From Botryllus schlosseri (taxonomy: Eukaryota): a DNA stretch of 64,000 nucleotides. The DNA is taken from assembly GCA_051294905.1 (NCBI GenBank), contig CM119371.1, positions 22,756,001 to 22,820,000 of the forward strand, in the 5' to 3' direction. Under the pieces are notes generated by a model that made no database searches, was not told the origin of the DNA, and saw only the letters and a program-made list of their open reading frames with translations. Every line of letters starts with the position of its first letter. Within the stretch, counting starts at the first letter, position 1. Shown here in pieces: positions 9,103 through 64,000 of the stretch. The position numbers were made by a program, and so were the translations under genes.

Positions 9103-12071
9103 GGGCAATTCCCTGCACAGACAACCGATGTTCCCACCACTACCTCTTCAAATCTTTTGAAATTTGGTACGGGCACAGATGACCTAATTCCAAACAAGAT
9201 GAACTTTATTTCATGAAAATTGGACTTTGGGGTCAAAAGTTAGGTCACTTTGAAAATTGACAATTTTCTGCTCATTTCGGGTCTGCACTTTCAGGTTTTA
9301 TCAATGCAATATTCAAGAAGGTGTAGCTAGATGTTAGACGACAGTTGAGATACGGCATTTGGATTTATTTGAAGCTTGTCTGATCGTCTATATTTTCAAG
9401 TGAAATTTAATGCCCTGTAGGTTAGGGTCAAAGGTTAAATTGAGGGGGAATTTGGTCAATGGTCTAAAATCAGTCAGGCGTTACACGATTTAGACTGCGG
9501 ATTGCTCAAAAACATATTAAAATATTTTGGAAAATAGGATCTTAAATGAAAGTTTGCTTCAAGGAGACTTCGTTCATAGCTGTTTGATTTTGTTTTTTTT
9601 GACCGTAAAGTGATGAAATTGCAGTTTCAAGAGCACACTTCATTTGCACATGGAAATGCAGTAGTAGTAGGGTGTGTTCGGACATCTATTCTGGGGTGCG
9701 TGTGGACATCATGTCTCGGGTGTGTTCCGACATCATGTCTTGGGTCTGTTAGCACTGTGTTGCCATTCGAACATCGTGTCTGGGGTGAGTTCGGACTGTT
9801 TTGTCCCTCGGACATCGTGTATGAGGGGGGTGTTCAGACACCATGCCTGGCGTGTGTTAGGACTGTGCTGTCACTCTGACATAGTATCTGGGATATGTTT
9901 GTGTTGCGCCAGACATGACTCAGACCTGATATCTGCGCACTAATTTTATCCGGACATGCTCCGGAGCTGATACCTGCCCACTAAATACCCCCAGGCATGG
10001 TCCGAACCGGATATATGCGCGCTTAATGGACACAGATATGCGTCAGACGTGATACCCACGTCCTAAACGACGCGTTTTTGCTGATATCTGCGATAGCTGG
10101 CTATATCCACAGTAGTGGTAGCTGAGTATATCCACATTCACAGTAGAGATAGCTGAGTACATCCTAAGCTATCACTACTGTGGTTATACTCAGCTATCAC
10201 TGCTGTAGATATACCCAGCTAACGCAGATATCAGCAAAAACCGCAAATATAGAGGTCATATATAGGCCAAATGTCGTTTAGGACGTGGGTATCACGTCTG
10301 ACGCATGTATGTGTCCACTAAGCCCGCAGATATCAGGTCCGGACTATGCCTGGGTGTATTTGGTGCGCAGGTATCAGCTACGACACATGTCCAGATTAAA
10401 ATAGTGGGCAGATATCAGGTCTGGGCATGTTTGGCGTATCACAAACATATCCCAGACACGATGTCCGAGTAGCAAACAAAGTCCGGACACACCCCAGGCA
10501 TGATGTCCAAACACCTTCCAGACACGATGTCCGAATGACAACACAGTCCGAGCTCACCCCAGATACGATGTCCGCGTTGCAAAACAGTCAGAACAGACCC
10601 GAGACATAATATCTGGGGTGAGCTCGGACTGTGTTGTCATTCGGACATCATGTCTGGGAGGTGTTCGGACATCATGCCTGGGGTGTGTCCGGACTGTGTT
10701 TGCTACTCGGACATCGTGTCTGGGATATGTTTGTGATACGCCAAACATGCCCAGACCTGATATCTGCCCACTATTTTAATCTGGACATGTGTCGTAGCTG
10801 ATACCTGCGCACCAAATACACCCAGGCATAGTCCGGACCTGATATCTGCGGGCTTAGTGGACACATACATGCGTCAGACGTGATACCCACGTCCTAAACG
10901 ACATTTGGCCTATATATGACCTCTATATTTGCGGTTTTTGCTGATATCTGCGTTAGCTGGGTATATCTACAGCAGTGATAGCTGAGTATAACCACAGTAG
11001 TGATAGCTTAGGATGTACTCAGCTATCTCTACTGTGAATGTGGATATACTCAGCTACCACTACTGTGGATATAGCCAGCTATCGCAGATATCAGCAAAAA
11101 CGCGTCGTTTAGGACGTGGGTATCACGTCTGACGCATATCTGTGTTCATTAAGCGCGCATATATCCGGTTCGGACCATGCCTGGGGGTATTTAGTGGGCA
11201 GGTATCAGCTCCGGAGCATGTCCGGATAAAATTAGTGCGCAGATATCAGGTCTGAGTCATGTCTGGCGCAACACAAACATATCCCAGATACTATGTCAGA
11301 GTGACAGCACAGTCCTAACACACGCCAGGCATGGTGTCTGAACACCCCCCTCATACACGATGTCCGAGGGACAAAACAGTCCGAACTCACCCCAGACACG
11401 ATGTTCGAATGGCAACACAGTGCTAACAGACCCAAGACATGATGTCGGAACACACCCGAGACATGATGTCCACACGCACCCCAGAATAGATGTCCGAACA
11501 CACCCTACTACTACTGCATTTCCATGTGCAAATGAAGTGTGCTCTTGAAACTGCAATTTCATCACTTTACGGTCTAAAAACCAAAATCAAACAGCTATGA
11601 ACGAAGTCTCCTTGAAGCAAACTTTCATTTAAGATCCTATTTTCCAAAATATTTTAATATGTTTTTGAGCAATCCGCAGTCTAAATCGTGTAACGCCTGA
11701 CTGATTTTAGACCATTGACCAAATTCCCCCTCAATTTAACCTTTGACCCTAACCTACAGGGCATTAAATTTCACTTGAAAATATAGACGATCAGACAAGC
11801 TTCAAATAAATCCAAATGCCGTATCTCAACTGTCCTCTAACATCTAGCTACACCTTCTTGAATACTGCATTGATAAAACCTGAAAGTGCAGACCCGAAAT
11901 GAGCAGAAAATTGTCAATTTTCAAAGTGACGTAACTTTTGATCCCAAAGTCCAATTTTCATGAAATAAAGTTCATCCTGTTTGGAATCAGCTCATCTGTG
12001 CGTGTACCAAATTTCAGGAGATTTGAAGAGGTAGTGGTGGGAACATCGGTTGTCTGTGCAGGGAATTGCCC
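9103..12071. mobile_element. Non-coding foldback (palindromic) DNA transposon, possibly Sola2-like
   Basis: Arms 9103-10565 and 10610-12071 are reverse complements around a 44-bp spacer; ends GGGCAATTCCC...GGGAATTGCCC; flanked by direct repeat ACTT (or CACTTG if the ends are read one base inward). Confidence 0.9.
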
Positions 12072-13219: not shown

Positions 13220-13900
13220 GAGGGGTCACCGAAACGCGGGTTGCGATTTTATGTTTTGCGGCCCACGATCTGATTTTGGATTTCGCAATAAGGCTTAGTA
13301 AAGCATTTTGAAATGTCGAAATATATTTCAGTTGCAAAACATTGTTGCTGTTGTTCGAAGTTGGCTATTCTTCTACGCCCAACATCACTGTTCCTGTGGT
13401 TTTGGCGATGGCAGCAATATTCCGTCAGGGGGAATCAGCTAATATGAATGGCCATTGTGCATATTGCCTTGACATGCAATGGCCTACTAGACACTTCCAA
13501 GACCGAGACGTTTAGAAAACGGCTTAGGCTTAGGGCTTCCCTACAAGATCAAGCCTTACGAGGCGATAGTCTTCCAGATAGTGATGTGTCACGCTAGCCC
13601 CAATATGGATTCCGCAGTCGCTGAAAAGCGATGTCTGGTATCGTGCGAAGCTCATGTAGTTCAAAATAAAATGAAAGTCATGTTCAATATAATTTTGTTG
13701 TAGTTATATTTCTTACATAAAATATGACTTTATTGTGGTCGCCCATATTAGCGAGCATGGAATTGTACTAACGTGAAGTTTGAAGAACGTGGCTGCTCAA
13801 CTATGAGCCCTTTTTGTCTCGACATTACACTCTTGCTTTCCGCGGCCTCTACAAAATTTGAAAAGTGACCAACGACCAGTTTTGAGTTGGCGAACCCCGG
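13220..13900 (+). mobile_element. hAT-type element, uninterrupted relative of 34007-35437
   Basis: Colinear similarity with 34007-34424 plus 35137-35437; ends gagttggcgaaccccgg versus gagttggcgacccctg. Confidence 0.7.
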
Positions 13901-14413
13901 TTTAAAACATATTATTTTAATGTTTTTGATGTAAACGAAAAATGAGCGGGAGTATCTCAGAGGTAAATTCCACCACTTTGATACAAACCGGTTCAGGTCC
14001 CGAGTCCGACCGAAGTGGTTGACTTGATTGTACTTTTATGTTGGATGTTTATCTAGGATTCGCATCGCCATCGTATCCGCATAAGCGATGTCTGACAAAA
14101 TCCAGGACCGAAGGTTGGTCGTGAACTCGTCGGCAGCTCAGAGTATTACAGGAGTATTACCTGGACCGCACAAATAATCCAACGACTCGACCATTGTTAC
14201 GTCATGTGTACATTGTGTCAAAATGAATCCGTTACACTGCATCATTGTTGAAATACTTTTTCCCACGTGATCCAACCCAACACTGGTTTCATTTAAACAT
14301 GTCAGAGCTCCCGCAACTAGGCTAGTACGTGACCTGCGTAGAAAACAGGCTAAAGGAAGACGTCGATAGCTCCTTATCACACACGACAGCTTCACATAGG
14401 ACCTACTAAGTAC

Positions 14414-14840
14414 CAGAGATGAGCGGATTTGGAATTTCTATGTCCTAATCCAATCCAAATCCGAACCTTCAAATCCAAATCCAAATCCTAATCCAAAACA
14501 TTTCCATATTCAAGTCCATGTCCAATCCTAATCCGATTCCAACTGGAAATTCAGAAAAAATACTAATTTATGCAATGGAAGGATTTGAAAATTTTCTTTC
14601 ACAACCAACGATTCACTTGATTCAAGATAACTTAGTAACCATAAGTACAATAATAACTGATCTGAATAAAGTTTGTCGCCATTCGCCACACGACATTTCG
14701 ATCCCCCAGAAAATAGGTTAATCCAATCCAAATCCTAATCCGTTCTGAAAAAAATGTCTAATCCAAATCCAATCCAAATCCGAAAAAATTTCGCAAATCC
14801 TGTTTTTTCAAAACCTAATCCTAATCCATGCTCATCTCTG
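14414..14840 (+). mobile_element. hAT MITE with AATCC-rich subterminal repeats
   Basis: Perfect 11-bp TIR CAGAGATGAGC and perfect 8-bp TSD CTAAGTAC (14406-14413, 14841-14848). Confidence 0.92.
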
Positions 14841-45267: not shown

Positions 45268-45592
45268 CTGTAAGATAAGAAAAACATATACGATGGTTAA
45301 TCACGAACGCGAGAGTAATATCGCCATGACTGTACCACTTCCATGAGGACATCGCACAGGTTTCGATAGTAGCTATTGACTCGAAGCTGCTTAGATGAAT
45401 TTGGTAGCTTGATAGGCCAGAAAATAATTGCACTGTTAATGCTTGGGTAGAAGATAGTACGGATGGTGCGAAACCCTAAAAGGCTCAGATTCGTGCGAAT
45501 GCGAACCTTTACGAAATGTGTGTATGTCCATATCAGGAATCTCTGGTATCGAACTTTGCTTTCAACATTAGACTAGTATTGCCTAGTTGACG

Positions 45593-46180
45593 CTGTTGCT
45601 TTCGCATGCATACTTCCATATAGTACAGTCAAAGGTGATCAGTAACGAATCGAATCTACTCTTTCGGAGTGATCAAGTATATTTTCGCTTCAGACACTAC
45701 ACTTACACAACTGGTTATGGTTCTTGACTACTTCTACTTCATAGTTCTTAGTTTGTAGACAAAACCAGGCCATAGTGCTTCTCTGTTCTCTCGCTGTTGC
45801 TTTCACATGCACACTTCCATATAGTACAGTCAAAGGTGGTCAGTAACGAAGCAAATCTACTCTTTCGGAGTGATCAAGTATATTTTCGCTTCAGACACTA
45901 CACTTACACAACTGGTTATGGTTCTTGACTACTTCTACTTCATAGTTCTTAGTTTGTAGACAAAACCAGGCCATAGTGCTTCTCTGTTCTCTCGCTGTTG
46001 CTTTCACATGCACACTTCCATATAGTACAGTCAAAGGTGGTCAGTAACGAAGCAAATCTACTCTTTCGGAGTGATCAAGTATATTTTCGCTTCAGACACT
46101 ACACTTACACAACTGGTTCTTGACTACTTCTACTTCATAGTTCTTAGTTTGTAGACAAAACCAGGCCATAGTGCTCCTCT
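45593..46180. repeat. Tandem repeat, about 200-bp unit, three copies
   Basis: Near-identical units start gctgttgctttc at about 45593, 45793 and 45994. Confidence 0.92.
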
Positions 46181-46309
46181 TTCTCGGAAATCGCTCCTTA
46201 TACCTGTACTTAAGCAGCGATTTACGGCGTAACCTCTGTGTCTACTTGAGCCACAACAATGACCACTTTTTCCACCCGTGACTACGCGCTATATTTATTA
46301 AGGCCTATA

Positions 46310-46718
46310 TCAGTGGTCCAGAACCTTTGGCTCGCGAGCCATATATGGCTCCTTTGGGTGTAAGATATGACTCTTTGCCAAATATTTATTTTTGTACTGA
46401 ATTGATCAATATTGCAGCGATCTGTTAGTAAATTTTCATCACGGCCAGAATAATTATTCTCGTGGCTGTAAAACATCTCTTTGAGAGGTGAAGACAATGC
46501 CTTCTTCCAGTTTAGGGGCTCGGATCCTCTCTCTTCAAAATCCTCAAATTTAAGTTATTGTCGCGCCGGTGACCAATAGCGCTCGCGAATTCTAAGTACC
46601 CGACTCGAAATCTTGGATTTTGCGATACGTTGATTAATCGAAAAGCATAGCAGACATGGCGACTCCCATATCACAACGCATTTTTCAAATACACCTTGTT
46701 TTCCTAATCTACGGCGCG
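46310..46718 (+). mobile_element. Left part of a hAT-type MITE (3386 family), apparently interrupted by the large element
   Basis: CAGTGGTCCAGAACCTTTGGCTCGCGAGCC resembles the start of 3386 and shares agcagacatggcgac; no right TIR before 46719. Confidence 0.6.
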
Positions 46719-49700
46719 AGTAGTGTAGTAGATCGGTCGCGAACTAACGTTTTTTGCATGGGGTAGTATAGGGCCCGCTCACACGGTGCCGCGAAACTCG
46801 TGTTGGCACGGTGACCCCCCCTTCCGCTCGCACGGTGCCATTGTGTCTTATGGGCCCTCTCACACGGTAACCCTTTTCGGTATAGGGATCGCTCACACGG
46901 TGCCGTGAAAACTGGTGGTGACATGGTTACCTTTTCAGGTATAGCCATCTCTCACACGGTGACTCTTCTAGGTATAGCCATATCTCTCACGGTGCCTCGA
47001 AAACTCGTGTTGGTGAGTCGTACTTTCAGGTATAGGCATCTCTCACACGGTGACCCTTCCAGGTATAGGCATCTCTCACACGGTGCCTCGAAAACTCGTG
47101 TTGGCAAGTCGTACTTGTGGGTATAGGCATCTCTCGCACGGTTTTGAATATGTATCAAGTATATTGATCACGTGATTGGTTCTTAGTTAATGTGTATATC
47201 CCAAATTATTATATATGAGCAATTTGAAGTAATCCCAACGTTTGCGGTGAGTGCGACAATGATATATCGTTATTCTTATGAGTGCGGCGATGATTCGTAC
47301 TTTCGTTTATAGACTGTGGGCTGCATGTCGTAATTTCAGTAAAAAGGTGTGAAATAGTTGGATAAATCTAGGAATCAGCCGCATGATAATGTTTTGGTAA
47401 TTAGTTTGCCATAGAACCGGCGTAGACGGAGATTCGAATACCAACAATATCCGCGTTCACAAACTGACGACGATTCGAATACCAACAATAACCGCGTTCA
47501 CAAACTAACACTCCAAAAAGGTGCGAAATATTGGTAAAATCCCGCGATCGCTCACAAGATAATACCTAAGGCATAACCAGCGCTCACGACTCGCTGTTAC
47601 ATACATGCCGATCGTTGACAATGTAATATTTCGGTAATCAGTATGTCACAGAACTTGATTTCACTCGTAAGATTTAATAAGTAACGAATAACAGAACCAC
47701 AGTGTCGGTAACTTGAATAGCGACAAATTGTCACTTATTTCTGCTCTAACCCTAATCCTTTGTGAAGTGAACGCTTATTCAAAAAGGTGTGAAATAATTT
47801 TAAAATCCTACGACCGCTCACAGGGTAATGCTCCAGACATAGCGATCGCTCATGATTTGGTGTTACAGACATACCGATCGCTCACAAGGTAATATTTCCG
47901 TAATTAGTTTGTCACAGAGTCGTCGCAGACGGTGATTCGTAAACCATCAATTTGACACTTTCTGATGGTCGCTATATGTTTTGACACTTCGGACCGTGGT
48001 TGACTTTAGTTGTATGATAAGAATCATGCGAATATACAAGTGATGTGTCAATTTGTTAACTTGAAATGAAACTTACTACACAGCTCAAGTTGATTCGTAT
48101 CTGAATGTGTTAATTCGATACAATTCTAATTATTTTGAGAAATCTTTTTAACGTGATCTTTCGATTCGACCGTAACCTGAATATTACTGACGCCGACTTT
48201 CAGCCACGTCGAATTATTCGCACATTCCGCGCCGCTGTTTTCACACCTATAGAATCAATACCAACTATAACTCTACAAGAATCAAGAATCACAAGTATGT
48301 ACATTATACAGTTATTGTCTTTATCAACATGAAATCAAACTCTTAACAAAAACACGCAACTAATCATTTGACAACTCTATCATTACCAAAAAATTCAGGT
48401 ATTGTTGATTGAAAATCCTTGAGTCCTTATTATCAAAAATGTTATAGTGCCGCATCCGAATCCATTTGCAGGATGTACTAAAAGTAAATTCAGATAATCC
48501 CAAATGAAATATTAGGACTTTGGCATAGTCTGAATTGAAATATATTGACAAACATGACTACCAACTTTGATCCAGTCACATTTCAAGATCGTACTTTGAA
48601 ACAATCCTTGAAACTTACAACTCTATTCACGACTGAGTTTTCCGTTTATCAAATAGGGTTTCAGTGAATACTATCGCGATATTTTACTGTGTTACTACAC
48701 ACAATAGAATCAATCAATGAAATAGCACCTGTTGTAAATATTTCTAACTTGACAACCACTTGTGCATACCGCGATCGACTTGTGACGCGATGAGTTAAAT
48801 CGGAATATTTCAATCTATTTGTCGAAGCCTTGAACAAACTATCAGGTTATTTTTTGTTGCAATCGAGTGAACGGAAATAGTATTACGGCTCGACATCTTA
48901 CCATCTTACCATATTCAAAGAGTCAACCACAAAAACATTGTCAAGTAAATCCGTTTGTAACTTACCCGACCAACTCAAACAGTATCAGTATGAAAAACAG
49001 CCAAGCATACACGAGTCCATACCATCACTAAAACCTAAAATCCATAACAAGTTCGGTTGTATTCATATCCCTACACATCTTTTTATTCAACTGTAGGATG
49101 AAGTAATTACTACTTGGTGCGCGACTTTAGATTAACATATGTTTTGAATATACGACATTTGAAAGGTCGAGCAACGTAGTTAAGAATTCATTTCTTATAC
49201 GATCAAACGCCGGTGTTACATTGAAAGTTATCATGCTGTAAACATACGGATTGACACATTGATGTACCATATGTAATAGTTGATAATGACTTGATCATTA
49301 AATTATTCGTGTTAATTAGACCCGGTGTTGTGGTAAAGGTTATTATGACAACAACAATCTTTTCAGTACCGTTGTTATTAACGTATCGAGCTGTAAAACT
49401 ATGCGTGTCTGAAATGTTCATGATTGAAGAAATTATTCCACCTCGGTACATATCACTCTGCGTATCGCGGATATCAGAAAATATTTTACAAATGTAATTG
49501 TTTCCAGTAACAAAACTAAAGATGAAACAACAATTTCGTTTGCTGATTAACAACCGGTGCAATACTTTATTGTCGGAATCTGCGACATCGAATTGAAACA
49601 TACGCACATCACACAGTACGAAAATATCACTTTGGGCTCCGGGGCGGTGTCATTTAATCTGTGGTAAACTCTGTTCACACTCTCTGTCGAAAATGCGTGA

Positions 49701-51017
49701 AATGTAAAAACATTACGAGGTCACACTCTAAGACTTTGATCATCAAAAAAGTAAATAGAGGTATCTTTACTGGATCGATTCTATTCAACTGGTCTTGGTT
49801 AATACAAAAACCCATAACAATAATATCGAAGTATGTGCTACACTGAAATCTACAAAAATTTGTTTGTATTGCTGTTCATAGTAGCGATATCGATTTGAAC
49901 CTCCAGAATAATTGTCATCATGTAACCAAACTAAGGAAAGTCGTTGTCAATTTGTATGATGTTCACTGATTGCATACTAGAACTATTTGTGCAACGCACA
50001 CGATCAGAGAAATTTTCTTATTGTCATTCGTCGCAATATTCGGTCACTAAAATACGTTACTTGGATGTGATTGAATCGCCGGTAGTTAACTCGATAAATC
50101 AAACCCCTAAGAAATTTCACTCACTCATTAGATATTAAACAGTGTCGCCTAATCGGCGTGGGTCGCTTTTTATAAATACAAATCATACCTGGCCATCGCT
50201 GATAATTAACTCGGTAAATCAGAACCCTAAGAAATTTCACTCACTCGCTGGATATTAAACAGTGTCACCTAATCGGCGTAGATCGTTTTTCTAAATGTAA
50301 ATCATATAGGCCCAGCAGAAAAAATGTTCACCCACTCGGAAATGAAACCAATGTGTTGGTCTCCATTCGATATTTTGTTTCGGTCAAATACTTTGCAATG
50401 AACACATTTGAGTGGTTGAGCTTTACATCATCAAGCTGTCGTTTGTAAATCAAGATTTCGGTAAACCTGTGAATGTATCGTTTAACTAACCGACATTTAG
50501 TGATTGGTGAACATACCAAACGATACACATCCACCTCGAAATACTCCGTTGATCGTAATTTCCATCATCGTAATAATCGAAGTACATTTGTGTCGAATTC
50601 GTAACAACCGACTTTTCTATGGCATGATAAATTTTTGACAAGTTATACTTAGAAGGTTGGTACATATCCCAAAAAATAATATACCATTCATATTGATACT
50701 GTTAACCGGTATTTTCACGCGAGTCGATTTTCAAACGAGTAAAATTTATTACATGAGTTTTTCCGCTTACTATATTTAAATGTAAACTCACCCATCTTTC
50801 AACAACAAACAACGATAAAAAAGTATGCAATCAAACACAACAAGTTTTACTTTTGTACGACACTAATTATTATTCCACACATGTCATTTCATACTAAGTG
50901 TATACGAAAGATATTCATGACACATGAAAATATTCGCTCATGCTACGAACATACGCAATGATTGGTGACGCTTTCAAACTGTTTCGATATCACAAGAACT
51001 TTATTGTCTGAATGGGT
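46719..51017. repeat. Left inverted arm (4299 bp)
   Basis: Reverse complement of 59536-63844; mirrored ORFs have a constant coordinate sum of 110553, with one 10-bp indel near the tip. Contains a terminal CTCACACGGTG array (about 46775-47140) and short internal duplications (about 47430-47510, 50085-50310). Confidence 0.95.
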
Positions 51018-52079
51018 GTTCATGTATCTTAATAATCAAATAGTTCAACACAGAACTAGGACTAACAGAAACATCAGAGTTGTTTACACAAAAGTCTGTA
51101 TGTGTACAGTATGCGAATACCATGTGTAAGTCCAGCACAATTGCGGTATCCATCCGAGTTTAGTTAACACAAATTTATTACAACGGAGCCACGTAAACTT
51201 TCGTGAAAGAAAAGCATACTCACTTCCAGAGGGTTATGTCAACGCCATAGCAGTAAATCAGCTACTCCAACAACAAAGTACATATGTTTTCTAGTCACGG
51301 TCCTTACATCTTTCACATAGATCAATCTACTTTGCTAACGAAAAGTGATGAGTCATCACATGATTGCCCTCACAACAAAACAGCTAGAAGATATTATCAT
51401 ACAAAAATATTCCTAACACTTCGCACACCAGTGACAAATCATACAACAAACATTTTTTGTGAGTCGAATTGTTGTTCAGTGTCAAGTCTACCTGTTGAAG
51501 CATACATTAAAACAACACAGTCACAATTCAATTAAAACCACGAATCTATTTTCATTCCGTCACAAACTGTCACATACAGAAAAATAAATTTTATTTTCCC
51601 AACACATACTTGTAACCAATCGCTTTCATTAAACACACAACTCCATAAAAGTATTTCCTTCCTACAACATAGACATTCCGATGTAGTCAAGAAATATTTT
51701 TAATAATCAAAATCATCGACTTCTGTTTACGGCGTTAGTGTGTGCATGTCATACATTAAGGTCCGTATTAAAATGCAAACGACACGACTGAATGTCAGGA
51801 GATAGAAGTCTATCGCATAGATTTACATGTGGTCTTCGCTACGGTTTCAAAAAACGAATCATCTCTTTTGCATTGATCGAGACCGAGCAAGTTAGTTAAT
51901 GGCAATGATTGTGTTTGTCATATGTGAATAATAGGGTTACTGTCAAATCTACATACAACAACCTTCTGGCACTCATAATAGCAATTTCATTTTCTCCCTT
52001 CGTAATTGTATACTCACGACAAGTATATTGTACAACTCGACAGCTACGTTTAACAAGACCAACGACACTGAGCCCACGA

Positions 52080-52700
52080 CGTTTACCTGTGTAAAATTAC
52101 CACTTTCACTTGACAGTCCATCGTTTACCTGACTAAACATATCACTTTCCTTTGGAAATCTGACGTTTACCCAGAGTAAGAAACCATTTTCACTTGGAAA
52201 TATATTTTTTCCCCGGGTAACAAACCTTTTTTCACTTGGAAATATATTTTTTCCCCGGGTAACAAACCTTTTTTCACTTGGAAATATATTTTTTCCCCGG
52301 GTAACAAACCTTTTTTCACTTGGAAATATATTTTTTCCCCGGGTAACAAACCTTTTTTCACTTGGAAATATATTTTTTCCCCGGGTAACAAACCTTTTTC
52401 GCTTGGAAATATATTTTTTCCCTGGGTTACAAACCTTTTTCACTTGGAAATATATTTTTTCTCTGATCAACAAACCATTTTCACTCGGTAGTCCGTCGTT
52501 TACCTGAGTAAAAATATCATTTTCACTTGGAAAAATACTTTTACCTAGAGTAACTAATCATTTTATTTTAGAAATATATTTTCTCCCTGGGTAACAAACT
52601 CTTTTCGTTTGGAAAACTATCATTTACCTGAGTACCAATACAGTTCTCACCTGGAAATCTATCTTTTACCTGGGTAACAATACCATTTTCATTTTGAAAT
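52080..52700. repeat. 45-bp minisatellite (about six near-perfect copies at 52186-52460, degenerate flanking copies)
   Basis: Unit ttttcacttggaaatatattttttccccgggtaacaaacct repeated in tandem; it produces the repetitive ORFs 51973-52473 and 52167-52391. Confidence 0.93.
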
Positions 52701-54274
52701 CTGACAAACACACCTGACAATTTGATATTTTTGTATATTGTTACAACGGATAGCGACAAAATATACACCAACAACAACTCCAATACATTTGTGTAATCGC
52801 ATATTCACTTGTGCTGATGCAACCCATCAAAATCATCGGTTACCCACATGCAATGTGCTGTTGTACATCGACGTTTATGTTTTTGGAAAATTGGACAATA
52901 CGCTTCGATAGTTCTGTGATGGCCGGGCTCGTGCTTTGGATTTTCCAGAGTCAAAATGTCTGAATAAAACACCTCCTTGACGATGGTTGGTATGTGGATA
53001 ACGGTGTTCGGAAAACGGTTGGATTTATGTCCCCCATCGCGATAACAATTCCAGGTCGAGTTTTCCCCCGCGTGTTTACTATATTGTGTCTTTATTGGTC
53101 ATGTATGTCTCGACATTCAGTTTGAAATCGGAAACCCTGATAAAGTATGTAACCGGATCCGGATATCAACTCTGAATTGATAAACCAATGAACAATATTC
53201 AAAGTAAACATGTTACACCCTGTGTTTCGACGAAAAAATACCATCCAGACATACGTCGCGCTTGTTTGCCCACATCAGTATACGCGTAAATGGAGGTGTG
53301 TGACATTGCATGCAATGTGTTGGTATACAAACATCGATCCACAGACATTATCATAGCCGGTAGTTTTGATGTAGATCGAATGTCATCACACCCGATAACA
53401 ATGTCATACCAATAAGCCACATTGCAATGACTCTGAGTCCACGCTATTACATCGATATTTCGGCCCCGTTCATTGATTTACTCGATGGTGTTATCGTGTT
53501 GTAACATTACAAGATAGTCATGGCCCTATCTCTGGACAGACCACCCAGACCAATTGGATACATCGGTCAATATCCATCGTGTTGTCGACACCGAAGTTCT
53601 CTGCTGCAGCGTTTGACCAAGGTGAACTATCAAATCACGGGTGCTCGAAATGATTGCGATCTGTTATTCACACGATACATGGATGTCACTACTCCCACAT
53701 AACGACTCCAGATAAATATCGTGAACAGTGATTCTGCAAATCTTGGACTGATACTGTGATCCAATAAGGTGTGTTTCTGTGGAATGAAGACTGCAATCGT
53801 ACACCACAATAGAACACTACCTCGCGATTTCACACGCGATCATAAAACACATCATCGTAAGGGTCCAGTTCATCCGGTGACATTTCGAAACGGTCGTCGC
53901 CACAAGAGATCGGTATCATTTTGAAACGACATCGTCACAAGTCTATTGACGTCGATTCTGTTGGTCATGTCAATCCGTTTCAGAATCAACCGTTTTTCAA
54001 CTCCCCACACCATAGTGTTACGACACAGACAAGAAGCGTCGGTGGAAATAATAAAACACGGAAAGCACACTTTGGTGTTATTTGACATGGATTTTACACC
54101 CGACGAACCTTACATTCGAACGATGCATTGGAATGACGCTTGTATTATTGACGTAGAAGGAACAGAAATGTATCGATTTATTGGTTTCGTACATATCCAA
54201 CAATAACCAGGGTATGTGATTGTGTGTGGTTCGCATATTTGACTGTGAACGCTTTATTGATATATGTTGTACAG

Positions 54275-54500
54275 CAGTGCTCTTCAACCGGGGTTGTCGT
54301 ACACCCTAGGGTGTACCAGAATTTGCAAAGGGTGTACCACTCGGATGGGGTGTACAGGGGTGTACCAGATCCGAATTACAATGAGCCGATGGCTAGCTAT
54401 CACAAAGGCAGGTTTATGGGCCAGTACAGGTTGACGCACAGGTTAATGAGCAGTATGGTACGATGTTATCTCAATTGTAATACTGTTCACCGCTTGATTG
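54275..54500 (+). mobile_element. Left end of a hAT-type MITE with no matching right end
   Basis: CAGTGCTCTTCAACC followed by GGGTGTACC subterminal repeats; no GGTTGAAGAGCACTG seen downstream in the window. Confidence 0.5.
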
Positions 54501-54519
54501 TGATGTCATAAGCAAAAAC

Positions 54520-55743
54520 TTGATACGTGTTATCGGAGGTCGATATCGCGATATTCGTGTCCTGCCATCTGGGGACTTGTGCGTTGAATGTTCTAACAAT
54601 AGTCAATTATCCAAATTATTGGCATGTGATAATCTGGGCGAGCCAGACAAACCGATAGAAATACGCGCAGAGATTTTCAAAGCCAGAACTCCAGAAGTGC
54701 GTGGAGTGATTAGCAATGTCCCACTCGACATGTCCGATGCCGAGATAAAAGATGCCCTAAGTAGTCAGCAGGTTACCTTCGTGAAACGTCTGAGCTATCG
54801 CGCTAAGGAAGGAATAGTACCTAGTCGGTCGGTCTTGCTGTGTTTCTCCTCGACCATCTTACCTGCAGTTGTTAACATCGGGTTTTTGCGTTTTCGAACG
54901 AGGGTTTACAATCCACCTCCGACCCGCTGTTTTAATTGCAACCGCTACGGGCACAGGTCTAAGCACTGTCGAAGTCGTCAGCGATGCTCGAAATGCGGCA
55001 TGAATCACAGTAACAAAGAGTGCAAAAACCTTCCATATTGCGTGAACTGTGGCGCTGCGCATTCAGCCGCTTATGCAGGTTGTACTCGATTCCGACAAGA
55101 GGCGAAGATAAATTCTATAATGGTGAATGAGAGCGTTAACTATTGGGAAGCAAGACAGCTTCATCTTAAAAGACAAGCTCCACCTAATTGGCAGTCTGAA
55201 ATCGTTTTTCCTTCACTAACATCTAGTCATGGAAACGCCACAAGATATTCATCAAACCCTCCAACAGTGCCTCGCAACCAGAGTTCGACACCGGCAGCAA
55301 GCATCCCTCCTAATTCCCCATTCCAAGATCGACCTAATACAGTGGATCCGCAAGAATTTGTTACAATCCCAACCATGACATTATTCACCTTCATAGCTGA
55401 AGTCATGAAAAATACACTTTTAGCTTTCTCGGAGGGAAAGCAACCACAAATTGAGGAAATCATTGCGAAGTCAGCCGGCGACCAACTGGGAATCCACATT
55501 CCGGTCATTGAAAATATCAAAAACTTTAGTAAGCCATGTGGGGACGAAGGAACATCCTCAGATTCCTCACGCATGAACGAGAAGACTCCAACCAGTGCTG
55601 CAAGTGCCACGCCCAGTGCGAGTTCCGATACACCAGAGTACCAGCCGTTCATTCCAACGCCCATGAGAGGTGTCGATCTAACAACTCCTCATACTACTTT
55701 GAAGCAGCATAGTACGCCATATCAGCCGAACCCTTCACCCTGA
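54520..55743 (+). CDS. LINE ORF1 (gag-like nucleic-acid-binding protein), probably lacking its true N-terminus
   Basis: SGDLCVEC, VRGVISNVP, and knuckles CFNCNRYGHRSKHC, CSKCGMNHSNKEC, CVNCGAAHSAAYAGC. The track start is TTG, with an in-frame stop at 54478 and no ATG between. Confidence 0.88.
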   Translation: MIRVIGGRYRDIRVLPSGDLCVECSNNSQLSKLLACDNLGEPDKPIEIRAEIFKARTPEVRGVISNVPLDMSDAEIKDALSSQQVTFVKRLSYRAKEGIVPSRSVLLCFSSTILPAVVNIGFLRFRTRVYNPPPTRCFNCNRYGHRSKHCRSRQRCSKCGMNHSNKECKNLPYCVNCGAAHSAAYAGCTRFRQEAKINSIMVNESVNYWEARQLHLKRQAPPNWQSEIVFPSLTSSHGNATRYSSNPPTVPRNQSSTPAASIPPNSPFQDRPNTVDPQEFVTIPTMTLFTFIAEVMKNTLLAFSEGKQPQIEEIIAKSAGDQLGIHIPVIENIKNFSKPCGDEGTSSDSSRMNEKTPTSAASATPSASSDTPEYQPFIPTPMRGVDLTTPHTTLKQHSTPYQPNPSP

Positions 55744-58700
55744 TGCAATGGAATTGTCGAGGAATCTACCGCAAAATTCATGAGTTGAAACATTTTCTGG
55801 AGAGTACCTACCCTAACCCTGATGTCATTGCCCTCCAAGAAACCCACCTCGTCGCCAAATATACACCCAAGATACCGAATTATGTACTAGTTAGGAATGA
55901 TCGTGACATACACGGCGGCGGTGTGTGCCTATTCATTAAAGCGGGGATATCTTTCAAAGAGACAATAATTGCGGATATCGAACCGATCGAACTCCAAATA
56001 GTCCACCTTGGAGGTATTACAATCGTCAACGCATATGTCCCTCCGAACAAGTCCATACCCAGATCGGTTTTTCGCAAGTCGTTCGCGAAATTCGACTCTC
56101 ATGTGCTTATCGTTGGCGACCTCAACGCGCACCATCCGATGTGGGGAAGCAATCATCCGAACGTTTATGGTAGGCACATTTTATCTGTGATGGAGGACCT
56201 GGAACTAGTGATTATCAACACTGTCATCCCCACTCGTATCAGCTTATCGTCAACCAGTCTCGGCGCAACATCGCTACTTGATCTTACAATTGCGTCAAAA
56301 GATATTGCGCACAGAGTGCGAACAACAATCACGGACGAACTGTTTGGCAGTGATCACTATGTCATATTGAGCAGCCTCGACCTAGAAGTCAATATCCAAG
56401 ATCAACATCATCCATCGTGGTCACTCCGTCGGGCCAAGTGGCCAGATTTCAAAAACATTTGCCATCAGCAATTCTCCGATCTTAGTAACGACGCCGGCCA
56501 ATTGACGATCGAAGATATAACTAACGTCATATTCCAAGCCGCTAAGCACACCATTCCGCTTACGAAGGAATTCAGGAAAAGTAGTGTGCCTTGGTGGAAT
56601 TATGGCTGTACGCGAGCTGTCCGGTTAAAACGGGCCTCTTATCAAAAAATGAAGCGATCCTTTAGCGTTGATGATGTTATCAAGTTCAAGCAACAACGAG
56701 CGCGTACGAGAAAAACGCTACTCGATGCAAAACGATCATATTGGGAGTCCTTTTGCAACAGCCTAAATCGCAATTCCAAATTGACGAAAGTCTGGCGCGT
56801 AATTCGTTCGATGTCTGGCTCGCGCTCGTGGAATCAAATAAACCAATTGGTCTCGAACGGCGCGCTTATCACAGACAATGCCAACATGGCAAACGCACTG
56901 GCTCGGCATTTCACGTCATCCAGTAGTGATGAAAATATAGACGTATTACACCGCCAACGTCGCTCCGATTTCTGCAGCGACACCATTCCCGCAGTCTTAT
57001 CCGAAATTCCGAGCGATGACATAATGAACCTACCTTTCACCCGCTCAGAATTGTCTGATGTTTTGCGACTTAGGAAAAATACTGCGCCGGGCATTGATGG
57101 AATCTGCTCCGCAATGCTTCTAAACCTCAGTGACTATTGCGTCCAAAAACTTTTGGATACTATAAATAATTTGTGGGTTACGGGCCAGTGCCCAGCATCT
57201 TGGCGGCATTCAATTATTGTGCCTATTCTAAAATGTAGCAAACCCGCAAATAATCCCTCTTCTTATAGACCAATTTCTCTGACGAGCAACATCTGTAAGA
57301 CAATGGAAAGGTTAATCAATAACAGACTAACTTGGTGGCTTGAACGGAATAGAATACTGCACCCACGCCAATGCGGCTTTCGACGCAAACGGTCTACTCG
57401 AGATTGCATAATGTCACTACACGACGATATCTATAAATCATTATTCAATGAAAGATTCGTTTTAGCGGTGTTCTTGGACTTTGAAAAGGCCTACGACATG
57501 GTTTGGCGAGACGGACTCGTACTTAAACTGCGGAAAATTGGCCTCACAGGAAACATACTGCGGTGGGTGCATTCATTCATTAATAACAGAACTTTTCAGG
57601 TTCGTCTCGGTAACACCTTATCAGACACGTTTGCGCTCGATAATGGTATTCCACAAGGAAGCGTGTTGTCTCCGACTTTGTTTGCAATCATGATTAATGA
57701 CCTCCCTCACGACCTAACGACTAACATCAATGTATTTGCAGATGACGTATGCATTTGGGATATCGGACTAAACGCTTGTGATATAGCCTCAAACGTGCAA
57801 GCCTCGCTCAACTCCATTCAGGAGTGGTGCCACCATTGGGGTTTCAAAATTAACGCTCAAAAGTCGGCCGGTGTGTTGTTCACGAGAAAGCGCAAGTACC
57901 CTAACATCAATTTATTCATCGGACAGGTCCAATTGCGCTTAGAACGAGAGTTTAAATATTTAGGGATGACATTTGATGCAAAACTCAACTACGGTCCGCA
58001 TTCGCGTATGGTAGTCGCAAAGTGCTCAAGACGGCTCAATGTATTAAGGGCATTGGCTGGTACTACCTGGGGTGCGTCTAAGTCTTGCCTTATGATCGTA
58101 TACAAAACTTTGATAAGATCAGTGATGGAGTATGGTATTGAGGCGTATTTATTCTCACCAAAATACGTATTGAAAGCGCTACAGTTGCTTCAGAACAAAG
58201 CGCTGCGAATATGCAGTGGTGAAATGTCGAGTACGCCATCGTATGCATTACAGCACTAGTGTCATGAACTGCCTATGCGCTTGCGACATCTGCAAGCCTG
58301 CCTCGCCTATCGCTGCCACATTATGGCAATCGAAAACCACCCATGTACACCGCTAACAGAGCAGAGTTGGCATGAAATCTTTCCAGATTCGTTTCGATTC
58401 GAAACTTTTAATATGCTCACAAGGTTGAATGAGGGCATAAAAGACTTGAAAATAGCAGAATATAATCATTATCCCGACGCTCCATGGAATGAACAACCAT
58501 GTTACACCGTCGATACGCACTTGCAATCGATCATATCCAACATACAGCACCCTGATATAATCGAATTTGAATCCAACCACTATATTCTGTCTACATACGG
58601 TTCTTATATACAAATATTTACGGATGGATCGAAAACGAAATTTAGATGTGGGGCAGGTTTCCACGTAAAAGGACTCGGAGTCGATTCCCGCATTGCCTTG

Positions 58701-59450
58701 GATGGGAATCTATCAGTTTTTTCAACAGAACTTATTGCGATCCTTAATAGCCTAAATTGGGCGCGTAGCGAGTGCCGAGACCAGTCAAACATAGCTATAC
58801 TATCGGATAGTTTAAGTGCCATTATCGCTCTGCAATCTCGACAACGTGATAATCAGATTGTTTCCGATATAATTATGCTTTGCAGGAGCCTTTCTGGCCG
58901 TTCAATACGGGTCACCTTTATCTGGATTCCAGGACACAGGGGCGTTGGTCGAAACGAAGAGGCAGATCGGCTAGCAAAATCCGCAGCATCAGACGAAAGT
59001 CCTGACATCGCTCAGACCCACAGTCTAACTCCAAAAGAATGCAAACCCATCGTTATTGACTATTGCTGGAATAAGTGGAAGTCTGAACTAGTCAACGAAG
59101 ACTCGCAATACCAAGATCTCATACGCAGTAATGCTGAATTTCGTGGAATTTCTTGTCTCTCACGTCGTGAGTCGTCGATCTTGATCCGACTCCAAACTGG
59201 TCATTGCGGGTTGAACGAACATCTACATAGGATCGGATGCCATGAAAATGGATTATGTGAACTGTGCGCACAGCCTGAATCAGTGGAACATTTCCTGCTA
59301 AAATGTCCGAGATACTCAACTAATAGACAATATATCATCGAAGCTGCAAGGAACCATGGCGTTAACATCGTATTATCAGAAATTCTTACCAGCCCTTTCA
59401 CTGCAACGCCTATTATAGAATTTGCACTCCTTTCGAAACGAATAATTTAG
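55743..59450 (+). pseudogene. LINE ORF2 (AP endonuclease, reverse transcriptase, RNase H, CCHC) with one in-frame TAG at 58257-58259
   Basis: APE: QWNCRG, LQETHL, GDLNAHH, SDH. RT: APGIDG, YRPISLTS, QCGFR, LDFEKAYD, GIPQGSVLSP, FADD. RNase H: FTDGSK, TELIAI, SDSLSA, WIPGH, NEEADRLAK. CxxC...HFLLKC. ORFs 55743-58259 and 58275-59450 are in the same frame. Confidence 0.93.
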
Positions 59451-59535
59451 AAGTCTTGTTCTAATCAAACTTTCGGCCTGGTGCACAAGGCCTCAGTAGC
59501 CGGGCACCAATAAAAAAACCCATACCAACCAACCA

Positions 59536-62500
59536 ACCCATTCAGACAATAAAGTTCTTGTGATATCGAAACAGTTTGAAAGCGTCACCAATCATTGCGT
59601 ATGTTCGTAGCATGAGCGAATATTTTCATGTGTCATGAATATCTTTCGTATACACTTAGTATGAAATGACATGTGTGGAATAATAATTAGTGTCGTACAA
59701 AAGTAAAACTTGTTGTGTTTGATTGCATACTTTTTTATCGTTGTTTGTTGTTGAAAGATGGGTGAGTTTACATTTAAATATAGTAAGCGGAAAAACTCAT
59801 GTAATAAATTTTACTCGTTTGAAAATCGACTCGCGTGAAAATACCGGTTAACAGTATCAATATGAATGGTATATTATTTTTTGGGATATGTACCAACCTT
59901 CTAAGTATAACTTGTCAAAAATTTATCATGCCATAGAAAAGTCGGTTGTTACGAATTCGACACAAATGTACTTCGATTATTACGATGATGGAAATTACGA
60001 TCAACGGAGTATTTCGAGGTGGATGTGTATCGTTTGGTATGTTCACCAATCACTAAATGTCGGTTAGTTAAACGATACATTCACAAGTTTACCGAAATCT
60101 TGATTTACAAACGACAGCTTGATGATGTAAAGCTCAACCACTCAAATGTGTTCATTGCAAAGTATTTGACCGAAACAAAATATCGAATGGAGACCAACAC
60201 ATTGGTTTCATTTCCGAGTGGGTGAACATTTTTTCTGCTGGACCTATATGATTTACATTTAGAAAAACGATCTACGCCGATTAGGTGACACTGTTTAATA
60301 TCCAGCGAGTGAGTGAAATTTCTTAGGGTTCTGATTTACCGAGTTAATTATCAGCGATGGCCAGGTATGATTTGTATTTATAAAAAGCGACCCACGCCGA
60401 TTAGGCGACACTGTTTAATATCTAATGAGTGAGTGAAATTTCTTAGGGGTTTGATTTATCGAGTTAACTACCGGCGATTCAATCACATCCAAGTAACGTA
60501 TTTTAGTGACCGAATATTGCGACGAATGACAATAAGAAAATTTCTCTGATCGTGTGCGTTGCACAAATAGTTCTAGTATGCAATCAGTGAACATCATACA
60601 AATTGACAACGACTTTCCTTAGTTTGGTTACATGATGACAATTATTCTGGAGGTTCAAATCGATATCGCTACTATGAACAGCAATACAAACACATTTTTG
60701 TAGATTTCAGTGTAGCACATACTTCGATATTATTGTTATGGGATTTTGTATTAACCAAGACCAGTTGAATAGAATCGATCCAGTAAAGATACCTCTATTT
60801 ACTTTTTTGATGATCAAAGTCTTAGAGTGTGACCTCGTAATGTTTTTACATTTCACGCATTTTCGACAGAGAGTGTGAACAGAGTTTACCACAGATTAAA
60901 TGACACCGCCCCGGAGCCCAAAGTGATATTTTCGTACTGTGTGATGTGCGTATGTTTCAATTCGATGTCGCAGATTCCGACAATAAAGTATTGCACCGGT
61001 TGTTAATCAGCAAACGAAATTGTTGTTTCATCTTTAGTTTTGTTACTGGAAACAATTACATTTGTAAAATATTTTCTGATATCCGCGATACGCAGAGTGA
61101 TATGTACCGAGGTGGAATAATTTCTTCAATCATGAACATTTCAGACACGCATAGTTTTACAACTCGATACGTTAATAACAACGGTACTGAAAAGATTGTT
61201 GTTGTCATAATAACCTTTACCACAACACCGGGTCTAATTAACACGAATAATTTAATGATCAAGTCATTATCAACTATTACATATGGTACATCAATGTGTC
61301 AATCCGTATGTTTACAGCATGATAACTTTCAATGTAACACCGGCGTTTGATCGTATAAGAAATGAATTCTTAACTACGTTGCTCGACCTTTCAAATGTCG
61401 TATATTCAAAACATATGTTAATCTAAAGTCGCGCACCAAGTAGTAATTACTTCATCCTACAGTTGAATAAAAAGATGTGTAGGGATATGAATACAACCGA
61501 ACTTGTTATGGATTTTAGGTTTTAGTGATGGTATGGACTGGTGTATGCTTGGCTGTTTTTCATACTGATACTGTTTGAGTTGGTCGGGTAAGTTACAAAC
61601 GGATTTACTTGACAATGTTTTTGTGGTTGACTCTTTGAATATGGTAAGATGGTAAGATGTCGAGCCGTAATACTATTTCCGTTCACTCGATTGCAACAAA
61701 AAATAACCTGATAGTTTGTTCAAGGCTTCGACAAATAGATTGAAATATTCCGATTTAACTCATCGCGTCACAAGTCGATCGCGGTATGCACAAGTGGTTG
61801 TCAAGTTAGAAATATTTACAACAGGTGCTATTTCATTGATTGATTCTATTGTGTGTAGTAACACAGTAAAATATCGCGATAGTATTCACTGAAACCCTAT
61901 TTGATAAACGGAAAACTCAGTCGTGAATAGAGTTGTAAGTTTCAAGGATTGTTTCAAAGTACGATCTTGAAATGTGACTGGATCAAAGTTGGTAGTCATG
62001 TTTGTCAATATATTTCAATTCAGACTATGCCAAAGTCCTAATATTTCATTTGGGATTATCTGAATTTACTTTTAGTACATCCTGCAAATGGATTCGGATG
62101 CGGCACTATAACATTTTTGATAATAAGGACTCAAGGATTTTCAATCAACAATACCTGAATTTTTTGGTAATGATAGAGTTGTCAAATGATTAGTTGCGTG
62201 TTTTTGTTAAGAGTTTGATTTCATGTTGATAAAGACAATAACTGTATAATGTACATACTTGTGATTCTTGATTCTTGTAGAGTTATAGTTGGTATTGATT
62301 CTATAGGTGTGAAAACAGCGGCGCGGAATGTGCGAATAATTCGACGTGGCTGAAAGTCGGCGTCAGTAATATTCAGGTTACGGTCGAATCGAAAGATCAC
62401 GTTAAAAAGATTTCTCAAAATAATTAGAATTGTATCGAATTAACACATTCAGATACGAATCAACTTGAGCTGTGTAGTAAGTTTCATTTCAAGTTAACAA

Positions 62501-63844
62501 ATTGACACATCACTTGTATATTCGCATGATTCTTATCATACAACTAAAGTCAACCACGGTCCGAAGTGTCAAAACATATAGCGACCATCAGAAAGTGTCA
62601 AATTGATGGTTTACGAATCACCGTCTGCGACGACTCTGTGACAAACTAATTACGGAAATATTACCTTGTGAGCGATCGGTATGTCTGTAACACCAAATCA
62701 TGAGCGATCGCTATGTCTGGAGCATTACCCTGTGAGCGGTCGTAGGATTTTAAAATTATTTCACACCTTTTTGAATAAGCGTTCACTTCACAAAGGATTA
62801 GGGTTAGAGCAGAAATAAGTGACAATTTGTCGCTATTCAAGTTACCGACACTGTGGTTCTGTTATTCGCTACTTATTAAATCTTACGAGTGAAATCAAGT
62901 TCTGTGACATACTGATTACCGAAATATTACATTGTCAACGATCGGCATGTATGTAACAGCGAGTCGTGAGCGCTGGTTATGCCTTAGGTATTATCTTGTG
63001 AGCGATCGCGGGATTTTACCAATATTTCGCACCTTTTTGGAGTGTTAGTTTGTGAACGCGGTTATTGTTGGTATTCGAATCGTCGTCAGTTTGTGAACGC
63101 GGATATTGTTGGTATTCGAATCTCCGTCTACGCCGGTTCTATGGCAAACTAATTACCAAAACATTATCATGCGGCTGATTCCTAGATTTATCCAACTATT
63201 TCACACCTTTTTACTGAAATTACGACAAGCAGCCCGCAGTCTATAAACGAAAGTACGAATCATCGCCGCACTCATAAGAATAACGATATATCATTGTCGC
63301 ACTCACCGCAAACGTTGGGATTACTTCAAATTGGTCATATATAATAATTTGGGATATACACATTAACTAAGAACCAATCACGTGATCAATATACTTGATA
63401 CATATTCAAAACCGTGCGAGAGATGCCTATACCCACAAGTACGACTTGCCAACACGAGTTTTCGAGGCACCGTGTGAGAGATGCCTATACCTGGAAGGGT
63501 CACCGTGTGAGAGATGCCTATACCTGAAAGTACGACTCACCAACACGAGTTTTCGAGGCACCGTGAGAGAGATGGCTATACCTAGAAGAGTCACCGTGTG
63601 AGAGATGGCTATACCTGAAAAGGTAACCATGTCACCACCAGTTTTCACGGCACCGTGTGAGCGATCCCTATACCGAAAAGGGTTACCGTGTGAGAGGGCC
63701 CATAAGACACAATGGCACCGTGCGAGCGGAAGGGGGGGGTCAAAAGGGTCACCGTGCCAACACGAGTTTCGCGGCACCGTGTGAGCGGGCCCTATACTAC
63801 CCCATGCAAAAAACGTTAGTTCGCGACCGATCTACTACACTACT
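59536..63844. repeat. Right inverted arm (4309 bp)
   Basis: Reverse complement of 46719-51017; begins acccattcagac, directly at the end of the LINE tail. Confidence 0.95.
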
Positions 63845-64000
63845 GGCGCGAAATGAACTGCCGCGGATGTGACATTCACAATTACTCGAATTACAAACAA
63901 GGTCATAGCTATCCACCTTCTTTATTGTGGTACCGGCAATAAATGTATGCGCGTGGCACAACGTCATGTTACCGCCGAATACTTTGAGAATTAAGAAGTC

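Follow-up and report, generated by a model that had tools for sequence, protein, structure and literature searches.

What is an element that ends like a Maverick/Polinton, is as long as one, and has no long open reading frame (ORF) that is not part of a retrotransposon? The question is raised by a locus of Botryllus schlosseri, in a stretch of 64,000 nucleotides (the window) that corresponds to C1:22756001-22820000 of the 495.5-Mb assembly and in which positions 46719-63844 delimit an element of 17,126 bp between its tips. A preliminary description, made from the letters of the window, had seen there a gene-less Polinton/Maverick shell around a long interspersed nuclear element (LINE), and had proposed that it is a non-autonomous satellite of helper-like length, able to take the LINE with it. 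Elements of this kind were reportedly described by Kapitonov and Jurka in 2006 and by Pritham et al. in 2007. By definition, every Polinton codes for a family B polymerase of protein-primed type and an integrase like that of retroviruses (PMC5499653), and the published signature of Mavericks is the end motif 5'-(AGT)2...(ACT)2-3' or (AG)3 with a 6-bp duplication, in elements of 12.7-24.6 kb with inverted ends of 46-1,447 bp (PMC8097293). Our analysis indicates that the window element is probably one damaged member of a family of palindromes, non-autonomous and present in many copies, that derive from the Mavericks/Polintons active in this genome.

The tips, the perfect target-site duplication, the near-identical 4.3-kb inverted arms and the total of 17.1 kb given in the preliminary description were all confirmed. 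The left end (46713-46736) reads GGCGCG followed by AGTAGTGTAGTAGATCGG, the right end (63827-63850) reads CCGATCTACTACACTACT followed by GGCGCG, and the AGTAGT...ACTACT tips delimit the element with the 6-bp duplication outside both. The repeat finder pairs 46815-51017 with 59536-63738 (4,203 nt, 100% complementary) and the tip blocks 46714-46817 with 63746-63849 (99% complementary); a short insertion in the right arm parts the tip block from the main arm. Both flanks (46171-46718 and 63845-64000) consist of a host repeat present in many copies, with 2,667 first-look candidates for the left flank and 1,734 for the right, and because the element sits in such a repeat a paralogous empty site was available. 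The best 40 loci for each flank shared none, and the site was found by extending one left-flank match: at L057 (C12:7005380-7005940, minus strand) the host repeat is uninterrupted and holds a single GGCGCG, and the two flanks of the window element align to it contiguously, overlapping by exactly these 6 bp. Both the limits of the insertion and its duplication are thus genuine. Where an empty allele had been envisaged, it is thus a paralogous copy of the host repeat that supplies the single GGCGCG.

All long ORFs of the window element belong to the LINE (54481-59450), and there is no polymerase, integrase, capsid, ATPase or protease gene among the element's frames outside it. A Pfam scan of left-arm frames of at least 55 aa found no domain in 30 of the 51, save one spurious tandem-repeat match, and an Rfam search of 46500-64000 returned no family. 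What the termini do contain is the motif CACGGTRMC, nine times per terminus, in one direction and over a span of about 310 bp. Across the whole window it was counted 20 times where 1.14 matches were expected, and 18 of the 20 are in the two termini. These motifs sit within a 91-bp tandem repeat, and the motifs and the repeat are candidate binding sites for helper proteins.

The classification as a Maverick, which the preliminary description had based on the tips, is borne out by a gene-bearing element of the same genome that has the same tip, the same subterminal repeats and a 6-bp duplication. This copy, C14a (C14:12144761-12158836), is 14,076 bp long and has inverted ends of 770 bp at 97.4% identity. 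Its repertoire includes 1) a 1,135-aa frame, 2 of whose 11 database homologues carry PF03175, the protein-primed polymerase family; 2) an integrase with an rve domain (2.8e-16) and a chromodomain; 3) a small P-loop ATPase with weak A32-like matches; and 4) a 432-aa protein whose nearest language-model clusters are those of the F54H12.2/DJR-like capsid family (score 0.98), and which is predicted to be a double-jelly-roll-like capsid protein. The polymerase and capsid frames found no real match among solved structures by sequence search, and a PHROGs search of the C14a frames gave a weak ATPase match only. At its positions 505-1001 and 13998-14494, C14a matches the two ends of the window element over about 500 bp at 85-88% identity, with the tips aligned, and it matches the ends of the other palindromes at 82-95%. 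An autonomous-type Polinton with these tips, for which the preliminary description had suggested a search, is thus present, with polymerase, integrase and capsid and a weakly matching ATPase.

C14a is not alone. Our genome searches scored the best candidates only, and all counts from them are lower bounds. For the capsid frame of C14a, 97 matches were scored out of 305 candidates, and 83 lack a stop; for the polymerase frame the numbers are 41 out of 428, at 74-100% identity. By these matches, gene-bearing Mavericks with ends of the window type are numerous in this genome. They reach 18.3 kb. Capsid frames 100% identical to that of C14a adjoin polymerase frames that are only 74-75% identical to its own (e.g., at C2:31243464-31253874 and C12:605049-616132), and the Mavericks of this genome look modular or recombinant, with several polymerase lineages and one capsid. 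C14a itself inserted into a further member of the family, in the terminal region of the latter: on the left flank of C14a, identity to the interiors of palindrome arms reaches 96% (flanks examined at C14:12144300-12144654 and at about C14:12158887-12159090). Beyond the inverted ends, the palindrome arms match C14a only near its right end (C14a 13605-13845). In one palindrome, C13b (L051 and L052, C13:12449742-12464346), the match extends over 1.2 kb and by tblastn includes residues 45-188 of the last frame of C14a at 99-100% identity, about 775-1205 from the tip, which suggests that the putative helper and the satellite exchanged terminal sequence not long ago. The other C14a frames left no trace in the palindrome arms by tblastn, save one marginal match (E 0.003). 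A tblastx comparison of C14a with the palindromes had given short junk segments with inflated summed E-values, and was replaced by the tblastn search.

The relatives of the window element show what it once was. The terminal 400 bp have 49 matches in the genome (best 40 of 1,512 first-look candidates), mostly in inverted pairs 11-15.5 kb apart. The tip pattern AGTAGT-N6-GATC-N2-TCG occurs 1,005 times in forward and 1,002 times in reverse orientation, against 12 and 18 for the reversed control, which amounts to about 1,000 tip pairs genome-wide. Pairing the first 100 listed tips, all on contig C1, gave 39 pairs with a median of 14,228 bp, 23 of which lie within 12.8-15.8 kb; 15 minus-strand and 7 plus-strand tips had no partner. 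Among the long pairs, several consist of one element nested in another. At C1:16768420-16810257 three tip pairs are nested (14.7 in 28.7 in 41.8 kb), and since about 13-14 kb is added with every layer, the insertion of one family member into another is a repeated event.

We compared the window copy with 12 relatives on 8 contigs, taken as inverted pairs among the best matches to its tip; a pair 32 kb apart on C9, a C2 pair at 75-76% identity and unpaired matches were left out. All 13 copies have an AGTAGT-type tip and a perfect 6-bp duplication, and the 12 relatives have 12 different duplications. Ten relatives are clean palindromes of 11.2-15.5 kb, one (C7b) is a degraded and rearranged palindrome with arms that are 95% identical, and one is C14a. 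In nine of the palindromes, arms of 6.1-6.9 kb and 99.0-100% identity enclose a loop of 240-974 bp, four of the nine having an extra insertion in one arm; the tenth, C14b (11,211 bp), has lost the loop and aligns to its own reverse complement over its full length at 99.1%, with arms of about 5.6 kb. The longest frame in the 11 palindromic relatives is of 269 aa. Between copies, arms are 74-92% identical over 50-96% of their length, the left arm of the window element being collinear with the arms of nine other copies at 79-86% identity. The loops of different copies are homologous to each other, the seven long ones being 84-93% identical and the shorter ones being deletion forms; the axis of the palindrome was therefore inherited and not made anew. 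The near-complete palindrome is the defining architecture of the family, and the two arms of each palindrome lineage evolved in concert. An intact member lacks genes for polymerase, integrase and capsid. It has an (AGT)2 tip and 0.5-0.8 kb or so of subterminal repeats in common with gene-bearing copies, two mirror arms of 5.6-6.9 kb and a loop of some 0.24-0.97 kb, and as a whole it is about as long as the gene-bearing element (14,076 bp). That the window element is a non-autonomous derivative, as had been proposed, is upheld by the ends in common with a gene-bearing copy, by the many copies, each with its own duplication, and by the lack of the defining genes.

The loop contains the one frame that the family has conserved. 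It is open at the same place in six of six aligned full-length loops (those of L056, or C10rel, and of C7a, C2a, C1b, C6a and C13b) and runs for 93 codons from its methionine. Over 90 codons in five copies, 8 of 10 pairs have a dN/dS of 0.24-0.50; one close pair has 0.91, and for another pair, which has no synonymous change, the ratio is undefined. The counts are small and the pairs non-independent. Genome-wide, 115 of 150 scored loci lack a stop (1,192 candidates), and the frame persists in two divergent loops, where amino-acid identity is 58% and 63%; it is open in one of them and has a single stop in the other. It is absent from C14a and from four copies with a short loop or none. Taken together, these comparisons show a selected small frame. 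About 30 loci of 89-90% identity and near-identical scores share one TGA; in the three stop-bearing copies that were fetched and inspected the stop is at codon 92, with a product of 91 residues, and such loci would be a recently amplified subfamily.

The identity of the product is more elusive. The frame belongs to no Pfam family, its neighbours in the Atlas include none that convinces (best score 0.88), and it has one public homologue, at 97%. Its profile, run against 1.84 billion representatives, recovered two proteins, a 91-aa near-copy and a WD40-repeat protein (E 7.4e-4). The profile comparison gives a probability of 33% only, and the faint resemblance to a WD40 blade is a lead and not a finding. 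The AlphaFold model is all-beta at low confidence (mean pLDDT 49.3). The window copy of the frame has decayed and had escaped the preliminary description, in which everything outside the LINE was gene-less; this is true in effect of the window copy, whose long frames are indeed all those of the LINE, and not of the family.

How does this family compare with systems already known? Like Mavericks/Polintons, the window element has the (AGT)2...(ACT)2 motif, a perfect 6-bp duplication and inverted ends, the family unit falls inside the published size range quoted above (PMC8097293), and gene-bearing relatives in the genome have a protein-primed polymerase, an rve integrase, an ATPase and a double-jelly-roll capsid, as far as their frames allow a prediction. 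Unlike them, the window element and most sampled relatives lack the defining genes, and the inverted ends of the family, at 5.6-6.9 kb, make up nearly the whole element, against the published 46-1,447 bp. The sole conserved frame of the family, moreover, is absent from the gene-bearing copy examined. A closer model may be found among the defective genomes of adenoviruses. Deuring, Klotz and Doerfler reportedly found in 1981 that the symmetric recombinant (SYREC) of adenovirus is palindromic, with a unit length like that of its helper. The present family resembles SYREC and snap-back genomes in having one terminus at both ends of a giant inverted duplication, in consisting of non-viral or non-coding DNA, in its association with a helper type of genome replicated by protein priming, and in a unit length like the helper's (for SYREC, again, reportedly). 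SYREC depends on a functional helper and replicates with the virus (PMC2396429). Unlike the palindromes of Botryllus, known from integrated copies, such molecules are short-lived virion DNAs seen in the laboratory; the family here is an old lineage, with about 1,000 germ-line integrations, diverged subfamilies and a conserved loop with a frame of its own. We found no palindromic or gene-free Maverick derivative in the literature searched, whose coverage stops short of subscription journals and Repbase Reports, and the palindromic gene-poor family is apparently an unusual variant undescribed in that literature.

A mechanism that would account for the family can be outlined from these parallels. 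The palindromes would be integrated in trans by a Maverick integrase, copied in trans by a protein-primed polymerase starting from the AGTAGT tips, and probably packaged in helper capsids, which would hold their length near 14 kb. During copying, the displaced strand could snap back into a full hairpin, and mismatch correction or turn-around synthesis would equalise the arms; it is because of this full hairpin that arms would stay identical while lineages diverge. The reiteration of AGT at the tip is of the kind of terminal repeat used by adenoviruses for jump-back after protein-primed initiation. By analogy with the adenovirus snap-back and symmetric-recombinant genomes, replication and packaging of the palindromes in trans may thus be suspected. 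In its full form, a reading we hold only tentatively, the palindromes would be true satellites: snap-back defective Maverick genomes turned into a self-perpetuating lineage, copied by the helper polymerase, packaged to helper length, with arms re-homogenised at each cycle and with a 93-residue protein that would favour the satellite through the helper or the host.

A number of points weigh against this account of the family. First, common ancestry, and not a limit set by the capsid, could explain why the length varies so little, and 5 of the 39 tip pairs on C1 are shorter than 12 kb (3.3, 6.6, 9.6, 9.8 and 11.0 kb). Second, arm identity could be kept by chromosomal gene conversion without any viral phase. 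Third, the 12 relatives, selected by their match to the tip of the window element, are not a random sample. Fourth, no protease and no minor capsid gene were recognised among the frames of C14a, and the Pfam model PF03175 found no match in the genome, being equally silent in 14 control genomes. Fifth, public contigs on this stretch are mostly of 95-440 letters, and none of those listed bridged 46719, 54275 or 59535. RNA reads are few, and almost all of them lie only partly on the stretch (221/232 for X18, 242/252 for X22).

In another explanation, the shared ends would simply have served the integrase. The palindromes would then have moved like giant miniature inverted-repeat transposable elements, without copying by the polymerase and without packaging, their length being due to descent and the identity of their arms to chromosomal gene conversion. 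Only the ends are in common with the helper, the shorter tip pairs just listed do exist, and one palindrome of 11.2 kb has no loop; arm-to-arm gene conversion is, besides, an established process in large chromosomal palindromes such as those of sex chromosomes. Set against this are three observations: 23 of the 39 tip pairs stay within 12.8-15.8 kb although arms align over only 50-96% between copies, which points to a constraint on total length; the arms of C7b are at 95%, so chromosomal homogenisation is not unfailing; and the (AGT)2 reiteration, of the kind of terminal repeat used in protein-primed jump-back initiation, is kept in about 1,000 copies. We regard this explanation as rather doubtful. 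The satellite-like behaviour suggested by the palindromes, with copying and packaging in trans, deserves a direct test.

It remains to explain the LINE and the length of 17.1 kb. The insert at 54275-59535 has, in its ORF2, both the apurinic-like endonuclease (APE) and the reverse transcriptase (RT) that characterise APE-type LINEs. Its frames measure 420, 848 and 396 aa and carry APE, RT and RNase H domains; along ORF2 the matches are PF03372, PF14529 and PF00078 (6e-38), then RNase H PF00075, in one frame but for a single stop between the RT and RNase H parts. Many other copies of this LINE in the genome are 95-98% identical. The original layout of the element around it can be read from L056, a 97%-identical relative that represents the closest kin of the window copy and is known from one 2.7-kb piece: there, the arm ends at the match of window position 53439 and is followed by a 915-bp loop and then by the mirror arm. 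The window loop is 96.5% identical to that of L056 and 84-90% to six others, and homology to relatives of this type is unbroken from the tip to 54274, the mirror arm resuming at 59536, which corresponds to position 51017. Mapping against L056 shows that the LINE has taken the place of some 75 bp of the loop and, in the right arm, of 2,422 bp on the inner side. The left arm, in contrast, runs inward to 53439; the arms were originally of about 6.7 kb, and the 4.3-kb symmetry, although real, is the remainder of a near-complete palindrome that had been missed. The original element thus measured about 6,721 + 910 + 6,721 bp, or 14.35 kb, and its present length is accidental because it results from these 14.35 kb minus 2.5 kb plus a LINE of 5.26 kb. 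The helper-like length that had been attributed to the locus consequently holds for the family (11.2-15.5 kb, with a median tip distance of 14,228 bp, against the 14,076 bp of C14a) and not for the window element itself.

Queries across the arm-LINE and loop-LINE junctions match many loci with their LINE part and many with their arm or loop part, and the window locus alone spans either junction (best 40 of 1,871 and best 40 of 2,691 candidates). As the junctions are unique among scored matches and about 2.5 kb of the element is missing, the pattern is that of a LINE that inserted locally into the palindrome while part of the latter was deleted, and co-mobilisation is not supported. In principle, and to be counted on the other side, a second copy with these junctions may lie among the unscored candidates. 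A copy of about 14.35 kb integrated into the host repeat, with duplication of GGCGCG, and the LINE then inserted at its centre, where the last part of the loop was lost together with 2.4 kb from the inner side of the right arm; break repair at the palindrome centre is a plausible origin of the deletion. The preliminary description had seen the LINE as a possible passenger, i.e. the whole 17.1-kb unit as the mobile form that brought it to this site. Intact tips and a perfect duplication do flank all 17.1 kb, gene-bearing relatives of up to 18.3 kb indicate that such a size is not prohibitive, and a preprint reports polinton-related variants of butterflies that carry a LINE and lack polB, together with polintons whose inverted ends of about 2 kb bear genes (bioRxiv 10.1101/2025.02.07.637071). 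The window element is like those variants in being a polB-less Polinton derivative with a LINE and unusually long inverted ends. In that work, LINE-bearing forms are recurrent structural variants, which is evidence of mobility, and the long ends carry hexon and adenain genes, whereas here the arms are non-coding and, among the best 40 matches per query, the LINE junctions occur once. The LINE also sits exactly where 2.5 kb of palindrome is missing, as is typical of local insertion with deletion, and we consider its transport within the element very improbable.

The architecture of the family also recalls foldback transposons (Drosophila FB; Galileo, PMC3573991), in which long repetitive arms fill the element and most copies lack a transposase, and one may ask whether an unrelated transposon of that kind, FB/MULE-like or Galileo/P-like, came by its Maverick-like ends by chance. 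The long, internally repetitive inverted arms with few or no genes are what such an element would have. However, the arms are mostly unique sequence rather than arrays of short repeats, and the size is near 14 kb; some 500-770 bp of the terminus are 82-95% identical to the ends of a copy bearing polymerase, integrase and capsid; and the arms of C13b hold part of a helper gene. The duplication is of 6 bp in 13 of 13 copies, against a reported 7-9 bp for P and MULE elements. Membership among the foldback elements is thus contradicted by the duplication and by the Maverick-homologous ends, no genome search for transposases having been made, and chance resemblance is scarcely credible. Just as hard to believe is a false inverted duplication assembled from chimeric long reads, since, even if 4.2 kb at 100% identity is what such an artefact would give and no spanning read was seen, the same architecture recurs on 8 contigs, at 10-11 other loci with different perfect duplications, a contig of 41.8 Mb encloses the locus, and the boundaries agree with the paralogous empty site to the base.

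Features of the window element and its immediate borders (window coordinates)
Feature	Position	Strand	Basis or remark
Left target-site duplication GGCGCG	46713..46718		single GGCGCG at the paralogous empty site
Complete left palindrome arm, 6,721 bp, starting with the (AGT)2 tip AGTAGTGTAGTAGATCGGTCG	46719..53439	+	inner end set by L056
Subterminal region in common with C14a (85-88% identity)	46771..47290	+	sequence match
Nine same-direction CACGGTRMC motifs	46782-47087	+	within the subterminal region
91-bp tandem repeat	46857-47142	+	within the subterminal region
42-bp tandem-repeat array of the left arm	52104..52728		right-arm counterpart lost; homologous array in C3a arms
Central loop, last ~75 bp gone	53440..54274	+	homologous to the 915-941-bp loops of other copies
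Loop frame, copy of the 93-codon ORF, in-frame stops at codons 80 and 92	53967..54245	+	frame conserved across the family
Nested LINE, 3' end a (CCAA)n run	54275..59535	+	homology to palindromic relatives ends at 54274 and resumes at 59536
LINE ORF1-like frame	54481-55743	+	ORF list
LINE ORF2 (APE, RT, RNase H, zf-RVT), interrupted in frame by a single stop (58257-58259)	55713-59450	+	domain search
Truncated right arm, mirroring 46719-51017 only; inner 2,422 bp gone	59536..63844	-	arm comparison
Right target-site duplication GGCGCG	63845..63850		single GGCGCG at the paralogous empty site

Two other repeat structures lie in the window outside the element. Just upstream of the insertion, at 45591-46193, is a 201-bp tandem repeat in three copies (98% and 74% identical to the reference copy), and at 9900-11260 there are direct and inverted repeat families with a spacing of 831-860 bp, which suggest another repeat-structured element.

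The viral life of Mavericks/Polintons in animals is still argued mostly from gene content. A large family of gene-poor derivatives offers a signature, indirect but open to test, of a phase of replication under a size limit, and one of the kind given by the defective genomes of adenoviruses: 1) ends that are kept; 2) a length held at that of the helper; 3) the copy-back of one end; and 4) arms that change in lock-step. The loop frame adds a small lineage-specific protein. If the palindromes are true satellites, they would outnumber their helper by about 4:1 (1,192 loop-frame against 305 capsid loci, both first-look candidates). At the window locus, the LINE nested locally within one such palindrome and destroyed its symmetry, and is not a cargo. 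For the genome as a whole, the family is a natural system in which to study the concerted evolution of giant palindromes, and about 1,000 near-perfect palindromes of 14 kb would, if all were of unit length, make up some 14 Mb, or about 3% of the genome, which should matter for its stability and for its assembly.

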